A stretch of 26,455 nt of DNA from a virus: the UHGV virus genome UHGV-0075053. The stretch is one strand, 5' to 3'. Numbering within the stretch: position 1 is the stretch's first letter; the number at the start of each line of letters is the position of its first letter. The notes under the pieces are model-generated. The model saw only the letters and a list, made by a program, of their open reading frames with translations, was not told where the DNA came from and did not search any database. Positions 835-9,403 of the stretch are shown piece after piece. The position numbers and the translations under genes were made by a program.

Positions 835-1260
835 TTAAAACGGTATTCCGTCCCCGTACGGATCATCGTGCTGGCCTGTCTGTTGTTTTGCCCTGTTCAG
901 TGCGTCAGTAGCCTGGCCCTGCTGGCCTTTTTTGCCGCCCGGTCGCGCCGTTCGCGCACTGATTACGCTGTCTGCGATGACCTGCCAGCCCTGCCGCGTT
1001 TCGCCGTTCTGGCCTGTCCACTGGCTTACCTGCATGTTACCCGCCACGCTCACCAGTTCGCCTTTCTGGTGTTTTGCCAGTGCGTCGGCCTGTCTGCCAA
1101 ACGCCAGGACGGATAACCACATCGTCGCCGTTCCGTCATCTGCCTGGCTGCATGGCAGGGGAACCGCCATACTCGCCATCGCCATTTGTGTTCCCTTGCT
1201 GGTGGTCTTTAACTGCGGGTCAGCCACCAGCCGCCCGTAAGCCGCTATCTGTGCTGTCAT
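835..1260 (-). CDS. SSB-like single-stranded DNA-binding protein
   Basis: OB-fold-like pattern (GRLVADPQL...TMWLSVLAFGRQADALAKHQKGELVSVAG...W) and Gly/Gln-rich tail ending DDPYGDGIPF, resembling the SSB acidic C-terminal tip; ATG at 1260 with GGAGAA upstream. Confidence 0.6.
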   Translation of the reverse strand: MTAQIAAYGRLVADPQLKTTSKGTQMAMASMAVPLPCSQADDGTATMWLSVLAFGRQADALAKHQKGELVSVAGNMQVSQWTGQNGETRQGWQVIADSVISARTARPGGKKGQQGQATDALNRAKQQTGQHDDPYGDGIPF

Positions 1261-1323: not shown

Positions 1324-1470
1324 TGCGGGTTATAATCGCACTTTTGCGGGTTATAACTGCCGTTTTGCGGGTTATTTTGGGTATTTTACGGGTTACGATT
1401 TTCCTGCCATTCCTTTAATAATCATATGGATACTGATTTATCCACAGAAATAACCCGCATAACCCGCAAA
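1324..1470. repeat. putative replication origin iterons of the satellite element
   Basis: Direct repeats TGCGGGTTAT(A) at 1324, 1345, 1366 and a degenerate copy at 1388, with exact 21-bp phasing; inverted copies ATAACCCGCATAACCCGCAAA at 1450-1470; lies between the ssb and primase genes. Confidence 0.6.
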
Positions 1471-1496: not shown

Positions 1497-3623
1497 TTAA
1501 TCTTCTTCGCTTTCTGGCTGGAACATCAGCACGTAAAAAACATGCTGCTTCCCCCCAATTTTGCCGAGCGCCTTTTTCTTGTAACGGCGATCGTTACCCG
1601 CTTCCAGCATTCCGGCAGCACTCAACGCGCGGGCAAAGTGAGACGGATTAAATCCCTGTGCTATCTCACCCTCAAATACATGCGGGAACGTGTAAAAACG
1701 GAACTCGTCATCTTCGTTTCTGATACTCCCCTTTCTGTATCCGGCAAGCTCTTTAATCGGTAAATCACGCTCGTCAGAGTTGGGCCAGGGAAGGTATCTG
1801 CTGAATCCGAACGACGCTAAAAAAGCCTCTGCCTGTTCAACCATCTGTTTAAACTCCCTGTTACCCGTGCCGAACTCCTTCACCCAGGCATTAAAATTAT
1901 GCTGTATGGCATCGCGGCATTCCTGCTCATCCCAGCCAGTAACATGACCTGAAAGCACAAGCGCGGCCTCCAGTATGGCAAATCGCTCCCCCACACGGTG
2001 AACCTGTTCGCCGTAGCTCTCCGGTATCAGGTTGCGCCACCGCTCACGGCATGTCCTTACCGTGTCCTTTGCCTCCTGCTGGTGTTCTGCCAGCCATTTA
2101 ACCCACTCACGACCCGCCGCCCCGTGATTTGCTGTCCAGGCATCCTTTAACGCGTCTGCGTGCGCCTTTCCGGTGCTGTATTCGTGAAATTGCGTGGCTT
2201 TTTCCATCGGAACGTTAAGCAGGCGGACAAGCTGCCCCGCTTTGACTTTTATCCCCTCCGTTTTGAGGAATGTCTCAACGTCCATTTCTCCGGTGCTGAT
2301 TGCCACCGTTCGCCAGTGTTTTATCTCCCTGTTGCCGCCGTCCTTTGCCCCCTGTAATTTCCCGGAACCGTTAAACAGCGTATAGGCTGACGTGGACACC
2401 TCCCGCGCGTTTCCGGCCTGGCCTATTTCATCCAGGGGTAAAAGCCCGTCATTGTGTGCCTCTGCTTCGTTGGCGATACCTAACGCTGTGCCGTACCAGG
2501 TCAGCCGCTGCGCGTCCGGCTCTCCCCATAAACTTGATGCGATGTTCTGCGTTGTGGTCTTACCTGCCGATGACTGTTCGAAAAGATGTACCCCGAAGCC
2601 GTCAGCGCCCACCAGCCCGATTAATGGTGCGGATAACGATACCGCCACCCCCAGCATCATGGACGGATTACCACCAGCCAGTCGCGCCACGGTGTCGCGC
2701 CAGCCCTCCGCCGTTCCTGCCACGGAATAGCCATTAACAGCAGCAGTTTTTCCGGTAAACAGGACTGGCTTTTCGCAATCACCAATGACCGAACCGTCCG
2801 GCATGATGTACGCGCCAAAATGCCAGCCCGTTGTTGTGCTTAACTGCCATTCCTCATGGCTTCCGCTTAACTGCATCCAGTCAGCCAGGATTGCCCTGTA
2901 TTTACCGTTGGTTGTTACGTTCAGTCCGTGGTCTTTCAGCAGCCGCCAGCCGTCACGGTCGCCAATGCCACCGCACGGAACCGCCATTGTGATGACTTCA
3001 TGATTTGCTGGCTTTTTCCAGCGCATCACGCGGTAATGTTCTTTGCCGATTGTCCCCGTTCCCAGCAGTTCAAGCGGGGAACATAACCACGTCTCAGGCC
3101 GGATAATTTCGCCTGACTGCTTGTCCACTTTTGGCGTAACCCAGAAAACACCATCGGCGCGGCTTTCAACGCGGGGCTTTAATTCATCATCACCCGGGCT
3201 TTCTGTGATTTTTTTCTTTAAGGGCAACACCAGACTTTCCCCGCGCTCGTATTCGTCTTTGAGGCGAGGCAACTGGTCGGATAAATCCGCCGGGCTGGTG
3301 TCAGTTATCCCCGCGTATTCGTATACGGTCTTCACGCCAGCCACAGCCAGCAACGTGACGATCTGTGTAAGGCTACGTTCAGTGATGTGCCCTGCGCGGT
3401 AAATACGCACACACTGACGGCTATCATCAATAATTTGATAACCGGTAATATCTTTCAGGTGTTCATCTGACAGAACGACAGGCGGCACATTGTCGGCGGC
3501 AATATGCTTACCTGCCCATTCCTGCCACTCTTTCGCATGGCTCCACGCATCACTACCCGCAAAGATGATAACCTCCGTCATTTTGTCGGCTGGCTGGTGC
3601 TTTAAGTTTGGTGCGCGCTTCAT
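1497..3623 (-). CDS. primase/helicase-type replication protein of mobile elements (DUF927-like with P-loop)
   Basis: 708 aa; Walker-A-like SSAGKTTTQ; overall resemblance to primase-helicase proteins of E. coli integrative elements (from memory); start ATG overlaps the upstream gene stop (ATGA). Confidence 0.7.
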   Translation of the reverse strand: MKRAPNLKHQPADKMTEVIIFAGSDAWSHAKEWQEWAGKHIAADNVPPVVLSDEHLKDITGYQIIDDSRQCVRIYRAGHITERSLTQIVTLLAVAGVKTVYEYAGITDTSPADLSDQLPRLKDEYERGESLVLPLKKKITESPGDDELKPRVESRADGVFWVTPKVDKQSGEIIRPETWLCSPLELLGTGTIGKEHYRVMRWKKPANHEVITMAVPCGGIGDRDGWRLLKDHGLNVTTNGKYRAILADWMQLSGSHEEWQLSTTTGWHFGAYIMPDGSVIGDCEKPVLFTGKTAAVNGYSVAGTAEGWRDTVARLAGGNPSMMLGVAVSLSAPLIGLVGADGFGVHLFEQSSAGKTTTQNIASSLWGEPDAQRLTWYGTALGIANEAEAHNDGLLPLDEIGQAGNAREVSTSAYTLFNGSGKLQGAKDGGNREIKHWRTVAISTGEMDVETFLKTEGIKVKAGQLVRLLNVPMEKATQFHEYSTGKAHADALKDAWTANHGAAGREWVKWLAEHQQEAKDTVRTCRERWRNLIPESYGEQVHRVGERFAILEAALVLSGHVTGWDEQECRDAIQHNFNAWVKEFGTGNREFKQMVEQAEAFLASFGFSRYLPWPNSDERDLPIKELAGYRKGSIRNEDDEFRFYTFPHVFEGEIAQGFNPSHFARALSAAGMLEAGNDRRYKKKALGKIGGKQHVFYVLMFQPESEED

Positions 3624-3940: not shown

Positions 3941-4159
3941 TTACTCCAGAGGCCGCTTTTTAGCGAAGAGTTCAATATCAGATGTCAGAGAAACCTGTGT
4001 ATTTGCCAGGTCTAACAACAAAGAAATAAGAATTTCCTCTCTGCTATCTGATTTATCGGTGCTAAGGCTGTTCATCCACATATTGACGACTTCCCTGATT
4101 TTTTTCGCAGAGTGCATGGCTTCAAATGCCAGGTCTTCAATATCATGTTTATTTCGCAT
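3941..4159 (-). CDS. hypothetical small protein (start uncertain, 72-94 aa)
   Basis: ORF in the same operon; internal Met at 4159 gives minimal overlap with the upstream gene. Confidence 0.4.
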   Translation of the reverse strand: MRNKHDIEDLAFEAMHSAKKIREVVNMWMNSLSTDKSDSREEILISLLLDLANTQVSLTSDIELFAKKRPLE

Positions 4160-4361
4160 AATCGCCCCCGCGTAACTGGTCTGCACTAACACCCGATTTA
4201 GTGAGCATTTCAGAAAATCCCGCAAGAGTGCTGATAAATTCGTTTTCCATTAAACGGCACTGGCATTTAACCCGGCCTTTTTCCAGATACACCAGTACGC
4301 ACCCCGTATAATCTGACGGCACATTCAGCACTACAGATAAGTGCGCTTCATTATTATTCAT
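4149..4361 (-). CDS. hypothetical small protein (70 aa)
   Basis: ORF in the minus-strand operon; start overlaps the stop of the upstream gene. Confidence 0.4.
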   Translation of the reverse strand: MNNNEAHLSVVLNVPSDYTGCVLVYLEKGRVKCQCRLMENEFISTLAGFSEMLTKSGVSADQLRGGDYAK

Positions 4362-4590
4362 GGCTCACCACCTCCATATCAGCCATGATAATTTTGCTGG
4401 CCTCATTCAGTGCCATATCAGCACTAAGTTGCATTACAGCCAGTGAATGAGGAACGAAAGCCCCGGCATATTCTGTTTCGCTGGTGGCGTGCTTATGCGC
4501 CTTGTCTGCGATAACAGAAATATCAATCAGCGCGTGCATCAGCGTTTTGATGGCTTCGGCGGCTGCGTCCGGACGGGTGTTATTGCACAT
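4354..4590 (-). CDS. hypothetical small protein (78 aa)
   Basis: ORF in the operon; its ATG at 4588-4590 overlaps the stop of the upstream 68-aa gene. Confidence 0.45.
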   Translation of the reverse strand: MCNNTRPDAAAEAIKTLMHALIDISVIADKAHKHATSETEYAGAFVPHSLAVMQLSADMALNEASKIIMADMEVVSHE

Positions 4591-4786
4591 GGAGCACCCC
4601 CTGACGAATACGGGCGGCGAATACCATCACGCAGCCAGCCGGGGATTGCTGGCGTGCTTCCTGTTCGCTGGTGGCCACGATGTGAATCACGCGCGGTTGT
4701 GCGGTGCTCAGGGCGATAAAACGCCAGATGTATTTATTCAGGTTGTGCGAGTCCCGCCCTTGCGGGTGTGTGGTATGATTTCTCAT
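4580..4786 (-). CDS. hypothetical small protein (68 aa), first gene of the leftward satellite operon
   Basis: ATG at 4786 preceded by GAGGT RBS; located just downstream of the palindromic operator region; the longer 301-aa ORF-track version is judged an artefact. Confidence 0.5.
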   Translation of the reverse strand: MRNHTTHPQGRDSHNLNKYIWRFIALSTAQPRVIHIVATSEQEARQQSPAGCVMVFAARIRQGVLHVQ

Positions 4787-4863
4787 AGCTACCTCGATAC
4801 TCTTGCTATCGTTGGTGGTTAGACGCCCTGCATGTGTTGCGAGCACTGCGGGGCGTTGCTTAA

Positions 4864-4964
4864 TTTGAGTGACAAAACTCAAACTGTGCGCACAGATTAA
4901 AATCATGTGTGCGCACATGTCAATACTTAACATCTCATTTTTTTTGCTGTATTGTGTGCGCCCA
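4864..4964. promoter_or_regulatory. divergent promoter/operator region with TGTGCGCACA palindromes
   Basis: 7-bp inverted repeat TTTGAGT-N6-ACTCAAA (4864-4883); 12-bp perfect palindrome CTGTGCGCACAG (4884-4895); second TGTGCGCACA core (4908-4917); degenerate copy TGTGTGCGCCCA (4953-4964); between divergent genes at 4786 and 4992. Confidence 0.6.
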
Positions 4965-4991
4965 TAAAGTCCATTTAAGTGAGGTGCATCA

Positions 4992-5189
4992 ATGTCTAGC
5001 GGTAACACAAACAACAAATCAGCAAAGAAAAATATTCGATTCCCACATGAGCTTATAGATGGGATTGATGCCAGCGTTGAACAAGAAAAATTAACTAATC
5101 CTAGTGCTAATTTTTCCGCATGGGTCTTAGATGCCTGTGGACGCAAATTAAAATATGAACAGCGCCGGAAGGCCAAAGAATCAGAATAA
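4992..5189 (+). CDS. ribbon-helix-helix (Arc/CopG-like) putative transcriptional regulator
   Basis: 65 aa; KNIRFPHELIDGIDASV...ANFSAWVLDAC fits a beta-strand plus two-helix RHH pattern; GTGAGGTG RBS 6 nt before ATG; directly downstream of the palindromic operators. Confidence 0.55.
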   Translation: MSSGNTNNKSAKKNIRFPHELIDGIDASVEQEKLTNPSANFSAWVLDACGRKLKYEQRRKAKESE

Positions 5190-5231
5190 TCACTATCAGC
5201 GCCGTGGTGTGAGTAACTACGGCGCATTGCT

Positions 5232-5420
5232 ATGCAGGACAACACAATGACCGATAAAGAATTGACCAAAACATTATCACCGACACGGAAAAGACGGCGC
5301 AGAAAGATAGAGCATGAATCAGAAAGATTCGCACCTTGTTCGTTTGCTCTTGAGAAATTCCTTAAAGAGCGCAGGAAAAAGCTCTCGTTGCAAACCTTGG
5401 AACGAACCAAATCTGACTGA
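5232..5420 (+). CDS. hypothetical small basic protein (start 5232 or 5247)
   Basis: ORF downstream of the RHH gene on the same strand; Arg/Lys-rich; no recognisable motif. Confidence 0.35.
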   Translation: MQDNTMTDKELTKTLSPTRKRRRRKIEHESERFAPCSFALEKFLKERRKKLSLQTLERTKSD

Positions 5421-5611
5421 TCACATTGCCCACCAGCCGCAAATGTGGCATTGTTGGTGATGCTTTTGTTTTCCCTTGTTCCCACTGGCTACCCTTTTGC
5501 GGTCGCCTTTGTTTTGCCTGTTATCCGGCAATAGTGGCGCTTCGTCACCTGTCTGATATAATTCCACTGCTTATATTCATTTTTTGCGCAGTAGGTTAAT
5601 TGTTCGCAAGG

Positions 5612-6439: not shown

Positions 6440-6718
6440 TTACTTATTGGCGTTTTTGTATGGGCTGTTTACTTCCTTTACTCCTGGCGGATGCATAACC
6501 CACCAGAGCACATCAGAGAGCAACCAGGAAACAGACACTTTCCCTAAATGAGCACGAGCAGGAAATGCTCCCTCCTGTTCAAGTACCCAACGTCTGCTTC
6601 TTGAAAGCCCGGTACGATTGGCACACTCATGTTCGCGTATACGGCGATCATACGGTTCGCCATGCTCTTTCAGAATCTGAATGCGTTCTTCGGGTGTAGG
6701 ATAAATAAATTTTTGCAT
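6440..6718 (-). CDS. AlpA-family DNA-binding protein (second copy)
   Basis: ECANRTGLSRSRRWVLEQEGAFPARAHLGKVSVSWLLSDVLWWV resembles the AlpA/Phage_AlpA HTH pattern; start taken at ATG 6718 because the ORF-track start 6748 overlaps the upstream terminator. Confidence 0.55.
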   Translation of the reverse strand: MQKFIYPTPEERIQILKEHGEPYDRRIREHECANRTGLSRSRRWVLEQEGAFPARAHLGKVSVSWLLSDVLWWVMHPPGVKEVNSPYKNANK

Positions 6719-6730
6719 AAAAATATCACC

Positions 6731-6758
6731 TATAAAAAAACCCGCCAAAAGACGGGTT
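6731..6758 (-). terminator. rho-independent terminator (minus strand)
   Basis: Stem AACCCG/CGGGTT with 8-nt loop; T-run on the minus strand. Confidence 0.5.
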
Positions 6759-6781: not shown

Positions 6782-7015
6782 TCAGGGTTTCCATTCACCC
6801 TTTACCCATTCCAGCACCTCAGATAAGCGCCAGACTTTTGTTTGTGGGCCAATACATATTTTTCGTGGAAATTTTCCTTCCTTTTCAAGTAACGATCTGT
6901 GTCTCCTGCCAAGAGCGGTTAACCATGCACATTCATCTTCCTTAATCATCCTGTCGATTGTTTTATCATTTTCAAGTTCTTCACGCGTAACTATTTGAAT
7001 CATTACCGTCACCAC
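6782..7015 (-). CDS. AlpA-family regulator adjacent to the integrase (start uncertain: 7015, 7003 or 6949)
   Basis: ECAWLTALGRRHRSLLEKEGKFPRKICIGPQTKVWRLSEVLEWV matches the AlpA pattern; position immediately downstream of int as in P4-like islands. Confidence 0.6.
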   Translation of the reverse strand: MVTVMIQIVTREELENDKTIDRMIKEDECAWLTALGRRHRSLLEKEGKFPRKICIGPQTKVWRLSEVLEWVKGEWKP

Positions 7016-8204
7016 TAATTAGCTTATTCAGATAGTCATACCACCAATTCATAGCTTCTTTTTTTCTGTCCATATACTGGCTTCTGTTATAAACCCCGGC
7101 AACACCGCCTAATGTGTGCCCAAGCAACTGTTCAACCACATTATGTTCAAAACCATGATCACTTAGCTTTGTGGCAAACACTCTTCGCATATCATGCGCC
7201 GTCCATTTCTCCGAGTGTTTCATCCTTTTCCATGTCTTACCGATAGTTACGCTTGCCGTACACTGACGCATATCAAACCCAATCACATTTTCTTTGTTAC
7301 CTGTTATTTTTTTTAACGTAACTAACCAGTTAAACATGCCATCAGGAATCGGTCTGATTATTTCCCTGCCATTTTTGCTATGATCAGCGGGAACGCGCCA
7401 TAATTTCTTATCAAAATCCCACTCTCCCCAGGAGGACAGTAATACTTCTGACAGTCGACAACCAAAAACTACCAGGAAACGTAAAATAATTCGGTTTTCA
7501 TATGATAATTCGTGATTGTCATAATCAGTATTAATACTTCGCCATAAATCTCTGATTTCATCATCTGTTAAAACCCTGCTTCTTCGCGCAGACTTTTTTC
7601 CCACATCACAGACCTCAAGATCATCAATTTCATGACTAATCGCGTATTTTCTTACCCGACAAAATTTAAGCGCCTGTTTTGATATACGCAACAAAGCTCC
7701 GGCCTGTACAGGTGCTACTTTTTTTATTTTGTCAAAACACTTGATCCACATAGATATAGAGCAATCACTAAGTGGTACATGACCAATCACCGGATAAATA
7801 TGTTTACCAAAGCACTGCCTGATATGTTCTGCTCCCCTACGCTTATCCATTGCATAATTATCAAGCCAGTATTCAAGTGCCTCACGAACGGTAACAGGTT
7901 GCAAGGTGGCTTCCCGTTCAATTTTTATCTGAATCCGTGGATCTCTGCCCTCCGCAAGCCAGGTTCGACACTGATCGCGCATCTCTCTCGCTGATTTGAG
8001 ACTCAGATCAGGATATTTCCCAAGTGTCAGCCAGATGGGCGCGGTTCCCCTTCCCGCCAGTCTGTAAAAGAAAACAAAACTAACACATCCGTATTTACTG
8101 ACCCGTACCGAAAGCCCGTTACCATCAGCGATGGTTTCCTGCCTCTCACTCCTGCGCCCAAGCAGGGAACGAAGTTTTTTATCGCTCAGTTTGTTTAGCG
8201 CCAT
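6981..8204 (-). CDS. int: tyrosine integrase, P4-like
   Basis: N-terminal arm-binding pattern (LSDKKLRSL...GNGLSVRVSKYG...FVFFYR), C-terminal catalytic region with HxxR-like LLGH and conserved Tyr context; start set to ATG 8204 (MALNKLSDKK). Confidence 0.85.
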   Translation of the reverse strand: MALNKLSDKKLRSLLGRRSERQETIADGNGLSVRVSKYGCVSFVFFYRLAGRGTAPIWLTLGKYPDLSLKSAREMRDQCRTWLAEGRDPRIQIKIEREATLQPVTVREALEYWLDNYAMDKRRGAEHIRQCFGKHIYPVIGHVPLSDCSISMWIKCFDKIKKVAPVQAGALLRISKQALKFCRVRKYAISHEIDDLEVCDVGKKSARRSRVLTDDEIRDLWRSINTDYDNHELSYENRIILRFLVVFGCRLSEVLLSSWGEWDFDKKLWRVPADHSKNGREIIRPIPDGMFNWLVTLKKITGNKENVIGFDMRQCTASVTIGKTWKRMKHSEKWTAHDMRRVFATKLSDHGFEHNVVEQLLGHTLGGVAGVYNRSQYMDRKKEAMNWWYDYLNKLISGDGNDSNSYA

Positions 8205-8209
8205 GTGAT

Positions 8210-9403
8210 TTATAACCCGTTTTTGCAATACACAGTGCAATACACAAATGATGAAAACAGCCAGAACCTTCCAGAAAAAACAAAAACGACGAACAAGAAA
8301 AAATCTTTTTCTTTCATTTGGTTACTAAAAAAATCAGGACAGGTCGCACTGTTGTTACGGCGTGATGTTACTTTCTTGGTAAAAAAATTCACCCGCGCAG
8401 AGACCTGCTCCTTCGCTTTTTTCGCCAGACGACGCAGATCATCCCAGCGTTTACAGATGCCCAGGCCAGGATTCGCTTTCTGCCAGACCGTTTCATCAAA
8501 CGGATCATCTCCCTCATCAAGCGTGTAAATGATCGCAAAGTAAGAGTCGTCTTTTACAGCGCCCTCCACGTCGCTGTTATAGCCTCGCAATACCTTGATG
8601 GCGTAATCACGCTGCTCGTAACAAATCCCTTCCTTGTTAAAGCCAGCCGTGGTGATACCAAATAACAGGGACTGCAGACGGGCACCGGTTGCCGTTTCCA
8701 GAACGTCCCACACGTCGCGGGTTTTATGTGCATGCAGCTCATCAATAATGGCGCAGTGGATGTTCAGACCGTCCAGGTTGTTTGCATCCGAGGAAAGCGG
8801 TTCAAATTTTGATGCGCTCTGCTCCTGGTAAATCGCCAGCTTGTTGAAATCAAACAACCGCCCGAGTGTCGACCGGGCTTTTCTGACCATATTTTTGGCG
8901 TCTTCAAACACGATTCTGGCCTGGTCAAGCGTGGTTGCGGCTGAATACACCTCAGCTCCGCCTTCACTATCTGCCCCCGTCATATACAGACCGATACCCG
9001 ATGACAGGGTTGATTTTGCGTTTTTACGGGCAACTTCGTTGTATGCTGTCCGGAACCGGCGCACCATCACCGGGCGTCCACTGCCATCGCTGCGCATGAC
9101 AACTTCCCCGGTTTCTTCATTCACCAGCGGAATGACAAAACCAAAAATATTAATGAGGATAAACACATGCCAGTCCATCAACTCAATGGGCTGACCTGCC
9201 AGCGCCCCTTTCACATGGGGTACAAATTTGTAGAAATTAAGGATGTGCTGTGCACGAGGTTCACTGAAATAAATCCCCCGCTCTTCGCCGTACTTCAGAT
9301 CATCAAGAAAACGCTGGCAGGCCAGACGGACAAATTCGCCAGCAACAATTTCTCCTGCAACAACACGTTCGGCGTAGCGGATCCCGTCAGCCACTTTTGC
9401 CAT
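8210..9403 (-). pseudogene. terminase large subunit, N-terminal ATPase portion only (C-terminally truncated)
   Basis: N-terminal ~340 aa look terminase-like; the last ~55 aa (about 8210-8400) are low-complexity read-through; full-length TerL would be far longer; ends next to the integrase gene. Confidence 0.7.

Follow-up and report, generated by a model that had tools for sequence, protein, structure and literature searches.

A probable Rep-binding replication origin next to the rep gene of a truncated phage satellite

Iterons between rep and ssb

The window analyzed here is a 26,455-bp stretch, UHGV-0075053, that contains a truncated phage satellite. In this element, a set of short repeats (iterons) sits in the 236-bp spacer between two minus-strand genes: rep (1497-3623, minus strand), which encodes a 708-aa DUF927 protein predicted to be an initiator-helicase, and ssb (835-1260, minus strand), which encodes the satellite's own single-strand DNA-binding protein (SSB) and is the first gene downstream of the repeats. 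From sequence comparison and analogy with characterized origins, we consider it very probable that 1324-1468 is the Rep-binding replication origin of a satellite of the phage-inducible chromosomal island (PICI) type, or more precisely its rep-proximal iteron cluster.

On the plus strand, exact copies of the iteron TGCGGGTTAT lie at 1324-1333, which is the outermost copy and the most distant from rep, at 1345-1354, and at 1366-1375, the latter two each 21 bp past the preceding copy. The innermost member of this array, TACGGGTTAC (1387-1396, plus strand), has two mismatches to the 10-mer and one to the 9-nt iteron core, TAACCCGCA. A preliminary description of this DNA had reported four repeats at exactly 21-bp intervals. 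The start-to-start distance is indeed exactly 21 bp for all four plus-strand units (1324, 1345, 1366, and 1387), but only three of them are exact copies and the fourth is degenerate. The two inverted copies in the same description are both exact, lying on the minus strand at 1450-1459 and 1459-1468 and each reading ATAACCCGCA on the plus strand. They form the rep-proximal array, are 9 bp apart with one base in common, and begin 29 nt from the rep stop codon (1497). Altogether, the window holds five exact iteron copies, all within one 145-bp stretch, while about 0.05 would be expected from length alone.

The two iteron sets are separated by an AT-rich spacer (1397-1449; ~67% A+T, with a local GC minimum of 0.32-0.34) that is presumed to be the unwinding region. 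Inside it, 4 nt from the 9-bp-spaced iteron pair, lies a perfect DnaA box, TTATCCACA (1438-1446, plus strand), the only exact one in the window. We found no consensus site for integration host factor and no GATC site within this spacer. The spacer region had no DNA match in a phage database, no relevant Rfam family matched the repeat region, and a full-text literature search with the iteron sequence returned only unrelated primer matches and no text on iterons of the DUF927 family.

Alignment also uncovered a decayed iteron relic, TTTGGGTAT (1376-1384, plus strand), between the third and fourth units of the 21-bp array; its counterpart in the alignment is the innermost iteron, spaced at 11 bp, in the CP048330, O157, and Salmonella variants. 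The closest relative, CP016546, carries TGCGGGTTAC at the innermost iteron with the 9-nt core intact, and the window copy represents a G-to-A change relative to it. A plus-strand open reading frame (ORF) at 1074-1418 reads the iterons as LRVI, LRVI, LRVI, and LRVT. As the preliminary description had held, this ORF is an artifact, since it uses a TTG start, overlaps ssb in antisense, and in a close relative is disrupted by an internal 26-bp indel.

Iteron near-matches beyond the origin exceed the shuffled expectation, with 46 versus 22.8 at up to two mismatches and, for the 9-mer at up to one mismatch, 18 versus 5.6. This excess persists once the seven origin copies are removed, and it may reflect composition or codon usage.

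Layout in related loci

To place the array in context, we compared 19 related loci from seven genera, represented by Escherichia coli, E. albertii, Salmonella, Klebsiella, Plesiomonas, Tenebrionibacter, Serratia, and Yersinia. Absence of the repeats from related elements had been named beforehand as an observation that would speak against an origin; the repeats are present in all 19 loci in a common layout, and their sequence co-varies with the initiator. In the direction of rep, the stop codon is followed after 23-29 nt by two to three iterons at 9-bp spacing, an AT-rich spacer (33-55 nt; 64-87% A+T), and opposite-orientation iterons at 11, 21, and 21 bp. The inner-to-inner iteron distance between the two sets is either 52-54 or 62-64 nt, values about one helical turn apart. 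The window and CP016546 deviate slightly from this layout: their 11-bp copy is decayed (TTTGGGTAT), and the array is spaced 21, 21, 21. Within the iteron class of the window (class A, defined below), conservation is higher at iteron positions than elsewhere in the spacer region (Fisher p = 0.0003-0.0014).

The DnaA box follows a narrower pattern. In CP048330, O157, and Salmonella, where the spacer has otherwise diverged, TTATACACA occurs at the same offset as the DnaA box of the window, and Klebsiella and Tenebrionibacter carry TTATCCACT there. The box is degenerate at this offset in class B loci, and nothing resembling a DnaA box was found at that offset in the classes with TOPRIM-bearing Reps.

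A further short motif, TTAAAGG or TATAAGG in the direction of rep, lies 15-25 nt ahead of the first iteron of the 21-bp array in the spacers of 15 of the 19 loci. In the window it falls at ~1407-1416 (CCTTTAATAA on the plus strand). The motif crosses iteron classes, a similar one occurs in the second iteron cluster of locus L001 (see below), and it could serve in melting or priming or bind a host factor.

The Rep protein

The preliminary description placed the repeats between ssb and a primase gene. They do lie between ssb and a replication gene, but the primase label does not fit, as the gene encodes a DUF927 AAA+ helicase-initiator in which Pfam and related domain searches detected no primase signature. 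The only Pfam domain in Rep is DUF927 (residues 168-435, E = 5e-46). The protein comprises a TOPRIM-like region (residues 1-140), a conserved AAA+ core homologous to PDB 8tch (residues 141-590), and a variable C-terminal domain (residues 591-708; codons at 1500-1853, minus strand). PDB 8tch is a staphylococcal "pathogenicity island protein," matched at E = 1.9e-14 with the single sequence and at E = 1.5e-16 with a family profile (residues 209-604). By these matches, Rep appears to be homologous to the self-loading helicases of the Rep type that the pathogenicity islands of Staphylococcus aureus (SaPIs) encode. A weaker match was obtained to the Cch helicase of the staphylococcal cassette chromosome mec (SCCmec; PDB 5dgk, E = 0.001), with an NCBIfam score of 39.8 bits against a cut-off of 700 bits. 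A PDB sequence search with the C-terminal domain returned noise only. Homology of Rep to the alpha protein of satellite P4 was ruled out, since the best BLASTP match had E = 0.07 over 51 residues and Pfam assigns DUF927 and not D5_N/Pox_D5.

Longer relatives of Rep carry a zinc ribbon and a Toprim_3 domain ahead of DUF927, at the place where the Rep of the window has its 140-residue N-domain. By eye, this N-domain has FAGSD and RAGH in place of the TOPRIM motifs E-G-x-x-D and D-x-D-x-A-G. With moderate confidence, we predict that it lacks the catalytic acidic residues and is not an active primase.

Iteron class and the Rep C-terminal domain

The iterons of the related loci fall into classes. 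TAACCCGCA (class A) is found in the window, three E. coli relatives, and Salmonella, while TAACCCAC(T), one base off TAACCCGCA, is found in Klebsiella, Plesiomonas, and Tenebrionibacter. E. coli, E. albertii, and Serratia oryzae loci carry TGGGACAAG (class B) or TGGGATAAG, and GAGACAACA and TGAACCAAC accompany TOPRIM-bearing Reps. Across the 19 loci, iteron class tracks only residues 591-708 of Rep and is independent of the N-domain and the core. Reps whose C-terminal domain is 87-99% identical to that of the window share the same TAACCCGCA, even where the N-domain is only 42-44% identical. The O157 Rep, for instance, is 44% identical to the window Rep in the N-domain, 94% in the core, and 87% in the C-terminal domain, the Salmonella Rep is 42%, 93%, and 93% identical, respectively, and both go with the iteron of the window. 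The Reps of loci L007 and L019 show the opposite combination, with 99% identity in the N-domain, 95% in the core, and 38% in the C-terminal domain, and their iteron is different (TGGGACAAG). Klebsiella-type Reps (N-domain, 44-48%; core, 73-74%; C-terminal domain, 62-66%) go with an iteron that differs by one base (TAACCCAC).

Nucleotide identity between the window and a class B element delimits the exchanged segment. Identity is 84-98% until 350 nt before the rep stop codon, 28-60% from -300 to +200, and 76-98% from +201 into ssb. Since the drop is confined to -300 to +200, the exchanged cassette consists of the C-terminal domain plus the iterons, that is, the last ~100 rep codons and an iteron region of ~200 bp (1500-1853 plus 1297-1496 in the window; L004, L007, and L019 on the other side), in elements that are otherwise 84-98% identical. 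The N-terminal 140 residues are exchanged independently of this cassette, and Rep is therefore a three-part mosaic.

On the strength of these sequence patterns, we argue for the C-terminal domain and the iterons being a cognate protein-DNA pair, because of the cassette boundaries and because iterons are retained while the spacer diverges. The C-terminal domain would then be the likely specificity determinant of the origin. Footprinting with the N-terminal domain had been proposed as a check of Rep binding; this choice appears misplaced, as iteron specificity tracks the C-terminal ~115 residues.

The satellite element

Around the array, the gene order is int, AlpA, Bro-N, Icd-like, DUF4222, DUF927 rep, the repeats, and ssb, with small ORFs among the upstream same-strand genes. 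The tyrosine integrase gene int lies at 6981-8240 (minus strand) and the AlpA-type regulator gene at 6440-6748. The satellite integrase is abutted by a 5' fragment of a prophage terL (8210-9403), beyond which lie terS, HNH, and lysis genes. The element thus has the PICI organization of int, an AlpA-type regulator, and a replication module, without lysis or tail genes of its own. In E. coli relatives at 96-98% identity, ssb is followed by perC, a capsid-protease-portal-connector-HNH-terS-terL module, and the 3' fragment of the prophage terL. Because perC and a capsid/portal/terminase module follow ssb in these close relatives, the element is a capsid-forming PICI, a kind described previously (bioRxiv 10.1101/2022.09.08.507074), inserted within the terL of a lambdoid prophage.

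In the window, the element is a truncated, decayed remnant. Homology to the relatives ends at ~772/773, about 47 nt into perC (codon ~16), and the truncation removed the satellite capsid/terminase module together with the structural genes of the prophage. A tail-fibre-type DNA invertase gene (32-694) is joined to the truncated satellite. Among the matches listed from 5,426 complete E. coli genomes, none spans the ~772/773 junction. A related rep is present in ~734 of these 5,426 genomes; homologues number ~2,100.

Two ORFs of the element carry questionable boundaries or labels. The 301-aa ORF at 4580-5485 (minus strand) has an Icd-like domain confined to its last ~50 residues and is probably over-extended, because relatives annotate an Icd-like gene of ~63 aa and an ash pseudogene. 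The C-terminal third of the integrase ORF (6981-8240, minus strand) matches a PHROG labeled "terminase large subunit," a match that probably stems from the annotation of such integrase-terL junctions as fusions.

A second iteron cluster in intact relatives

A second iteron cluster, with an identical iteron and 9-bp/21-bp layout but in mirror orientation, is found in intact relatives. In L001 (the CP016546 locus; 4106-4260), L002 (1038-1192), and L030 (19682-19934), it follows the terL of the satellite itself, and in L028 (13927-14049) and L031 (4375-4487) it sits at the far end of the element. In L003, L005, L008, L011, L016, L023, and the E. coli element EcCICFT073, the two halves adjoin each other as a quasi-palindrome of ~230-350 bp. 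Where the halves are not adjacent and enough flanking sequence is available, the second cluster was seen in five of six relatives; one Salmonella element, disrupted by insertion sequence (IS) elements, has a single cluster within 10 kb. The window lacks a second cluster because the deletion past perC codon ~16 removed that region.

These arrangements raise the prospect, rather unlikely in our estimate when both of its parts are taken jointly, that the cluster in the window is one half of a two-part, mirror-image origin general to the satellite family. The halves would stand back to back or bracket the genes from ssb to the last gene, and in the latter case would cooperate by Rep-mediated looping, as do ori and crr of P4. 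As the second part of this same conjecture, the conserved DnaA box would also recruit DnaA in lineages whose Rep has a catalytically dead TOPRIM domain, and initiation would then be of a hybrid kind, combining the self-loading helicase of the satellite with the initiator of the host.

Origin reading and alternatives

Our interpretation of the array as a replication origin rests on its anatomy, its gene context, the homology of Rep to a pathogenicity-island helicase, the conservation of the layout, and the co-variation of the iterons with the C-terminal domain of Rep. The initiator-bound iteron origin of a satellite that the preliminary description had proposed is thus supported, as a prediction, by gene context, initiator homology, and comparative evidence.

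By analogy with SaPIs and EcCICFT073, we envisage that induction would bring about minus-strand transcription across rep, the origin, and ssb, and that the 708-aa DUF927 protein would serve as both initiator and replicative helicase, with its variable C-terminal domain recognizing the 9-nt core. Rep would occupy the two 9-bp-spaced copies on the rep side and the three to four opposite-orientation copies that recur every 21 bp on the ssb side; as 21 bp corresponds to two helical turns, the latter would all lie on one face of the helix. The AT-rich spacer of ~53 bp would then melt, Rep hexamers would load themselves there, and the satellite's own SSB would coat the single strands. Host primase, possibly DnaG, would probably be needed for priming, because the catalytic acidic residues are apparently missing from the TOPRIM-like N-domain of Rep. 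The perfect box in the spacer suggests, again by analogy, that host DnaA takes part in initiation.

Several observations weigh against this interpretation or parts of it. The window keeps only the rep-proximal cluster, which may be insufficient alone, and the innermost iteron of its 21-bp array (TACGGGTTAC) is mutated. For the C-terminal domain of Rep, the AlphaFold2 model of residues 560-708 shows a helix-helix-strand-strand pattern but is of low confidence (mean predicted local distance difference test score of 47), and the helix-turn-helix (HTH) domain of Cch in Pfam, HTH_56, scores 19.7 bits, below its cut-off of 26.2, and in 2 of 30 members. Part of the co-variation between the C-terminal domain and the iterons could be linkage, since the two lie side by side. 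We identified no primase in the window element, and outside iteron classes A and A' the DnaA box is not conserved.

The gravest caveat concerns function, as the array in the window may be half of an origin, inactive and part of a decayed element. According to this alternative, which we regard as unlikely but well worth weighing, the array is an origin by descent that is dead in the window, because a half-origin with a mutated inner iteron cannot fire if the two clusters have to work jointly, in the manner of P4 ori and crr. Intact relatives have two clusters, distal or adjacent, while the window has one and is truncated at ~772/773; the innermost iteron carries the G-to-A change relative to CP016546; and P4 offers a precedent, with crr right after alpha and ori 4.5 kb off. 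On the other hand, SaPI origins function with a single cluster (PMC9371898), and the IS-disrupted Salmonella element shows just one cluster within 10 kb. The window also encodes a Rep of full length that is 99% identical to its counterparts in intact relatives, and five iterons are still exact.

It is improbable that the repeats are mainly a transcriptional operator through which Rep or another DNA-binding protein controls a promoter that serves ssb, perC, and the late packaging genes. The ssb start does follow the array at a distance of 64-136 nt, the inner iterons are overlapped by a weak sigma-70-like site (-35 at 1410, -10 at 1383), and no terminator was found after rep. Iteron-binding initiators also commonly autoregulate, as in iteron plasmids, which counts in favor of an operator. 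However, the predicted promoter, at 9/12, is weak, close relatives lack the block in which it lies, and an identical second cluster follows the last gene of intact elements, where there is no gene to regulate. The iteron sequence moreover tracks the C-terminal domain of a helicase, and the layout agrees with that of the experimentally validated PICI origin (PMC6092414).

It is more improbable still that the inverted copies pair into a functional hairpin, within rep-ssb RNA or single-stranded DNA (for example, for processing, attenuation, or priming), with the class co-variation being stem co-variation: the region does fold better than shuffled sequence (RNA, -59.8 kcal/mol, z = -4.2; DNA, z = -4.15), with the iteron arms paired in both, but such folding is expected from any inverted repeat, no Rfam family matches, the extra 21-bp-phased direct copies are left unexplained, and most copies cannot pair because copy numbers (2-3 versus 3-5) and spacings (9 versus 11/21 bp) are unequal between the two sides. 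A cos or pac site was ruled out, as the array is distant from terS and its sequence tracks Rep and not the terminase.

For the window itself, the result is mostly ordinary, namely a recognizable origin within a decayed element. For the family, which is a widespread one among enterobacterial satellites, it pins down the predicted origin and, in the C-terminal domain of Rep, its likely specificity determinant; the origin of satellites with a DUF927 rep carries no annotation in the records examined. The naturally swapped cassettes of C-terminal domain plus iterons predict satellite replication compatibility and provide ready-made chimeras for the study of specificity. If functional, the second mirror-image cluster and the DnaA box would alter the picture of PICI replication as relying on one cluster after rep.

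Comparison with known replication systems

Among the known systems, the SCCmec helicases Cch/Cch2 (PDB 5dgk; PMC7581432) resemble Rep in their DUF927/MCM-like AAA+ core, and the C-terminal domain of the window Rep has the weak, sub-threshold match to the Cch HTH domain. The similarity is distant, at the E value of 0.001 and the 39.8 bits (cut-off, 700) given above. We know of no iteron origin with such a layout in SCCmec.

Iteron plasmids (pSC101, R6K, RK2, F, and P1) are similar in having direct repeats phased at ~21-22 bp, a nearby DnaA box and AT-rich region, and an element-encoded initiator; the window matches them in its 21-bp phasing, TTATCCACA at 1438-1446, and a spacer of 67% A+T. Their initiators, however, are small winged-helix proteins (RepA, pi, and TrfA) that recruit host DnaB, whereas that of the window is a 708-aa helicase with an AAA+ core whose only Pfam domain is DUF927 and not a winged-helix initiator domain of the Rep_3/RepA kind. 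The window also differs in that its iterons form two sets of opposite orientation, and in one set they are packed at 9 bp.

P4 is likewise an E. coli phage satellite, with a multifunctional initiator, alpha, that binds short repeats, and with crr directly after alpha and ori 4.5 kb away. Some P4 repeats are spaced at 9-10 bp, and the intact relatives of the window element are two-cluster elements as well. However, the repeats differ, those of P4 being octamers, and Rep has no sequence similarity to alpha (best E = 0.07). The window has one cluster in place of two separated regions, while L001, L002, L028, L030, and L031 have the distal second one. To our knowledge, P4 replication does not use DnaA.

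PICI and SaPI replication origins were reportedly treated by Ubeda et al. in 2007 and 2012. A rep-ori fragment of EcCICFT073 replicates a plasmid (Fillol-Salom et al. 2018; PMC6092414). The Rep proteins of SaPIs are helicases that load themselves and that bind iterons, placed immediately downstream of rep, through a C-terminal winged-helix domain; each side has two or more iterons, and the two sides are oppositely oriented (Qiao et al. 2022; PMC9371898). Rep-dependent autonomous replication of a rep-ori fragment has been demonstrated only for EcCICFT073 and SaPIs (PMC6092414 and PMC9371898). The available text of these papers does not mention the strict 9 / 11-21-21 layout, a DnaA box, or a distal second cluster resembling P4 ori/crr. 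SaPI iterons are 5-6 nt long, in contrast to the 9-nt core of the window, and the Rep of EcCICFT073 belongs to the D5_N/DUF5906/Pox_D5 family.

The window element shares several features with PICIs and SaPIs. In both, the origin lies immediately 3' of the initiator-helicase gene (29 nt from it in the window and 23-29 nt in the 19 relatives), and two opposed iteron sets flank an AT-rich region, represented in the window by two minus-strand copies and by three exact and one degenerate plus-strand copies around the spacer of 67% A+T. Both also combine an AAA+ self-loading helicase as initiator, predicted by homology for the window, with allelic iteron specificity. EcCICFT073 shares the order int-alpA-...-DUF4222-rep-ori-ssb-perC, and it has a 9-bp-spaced iteron pair 14 nt past the rep stop codon, followed by an AT-rich stretch and inverted copies. 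As PICI/SaPI origin architecture is already published, the predicted origin of the window belongs to a known kind.
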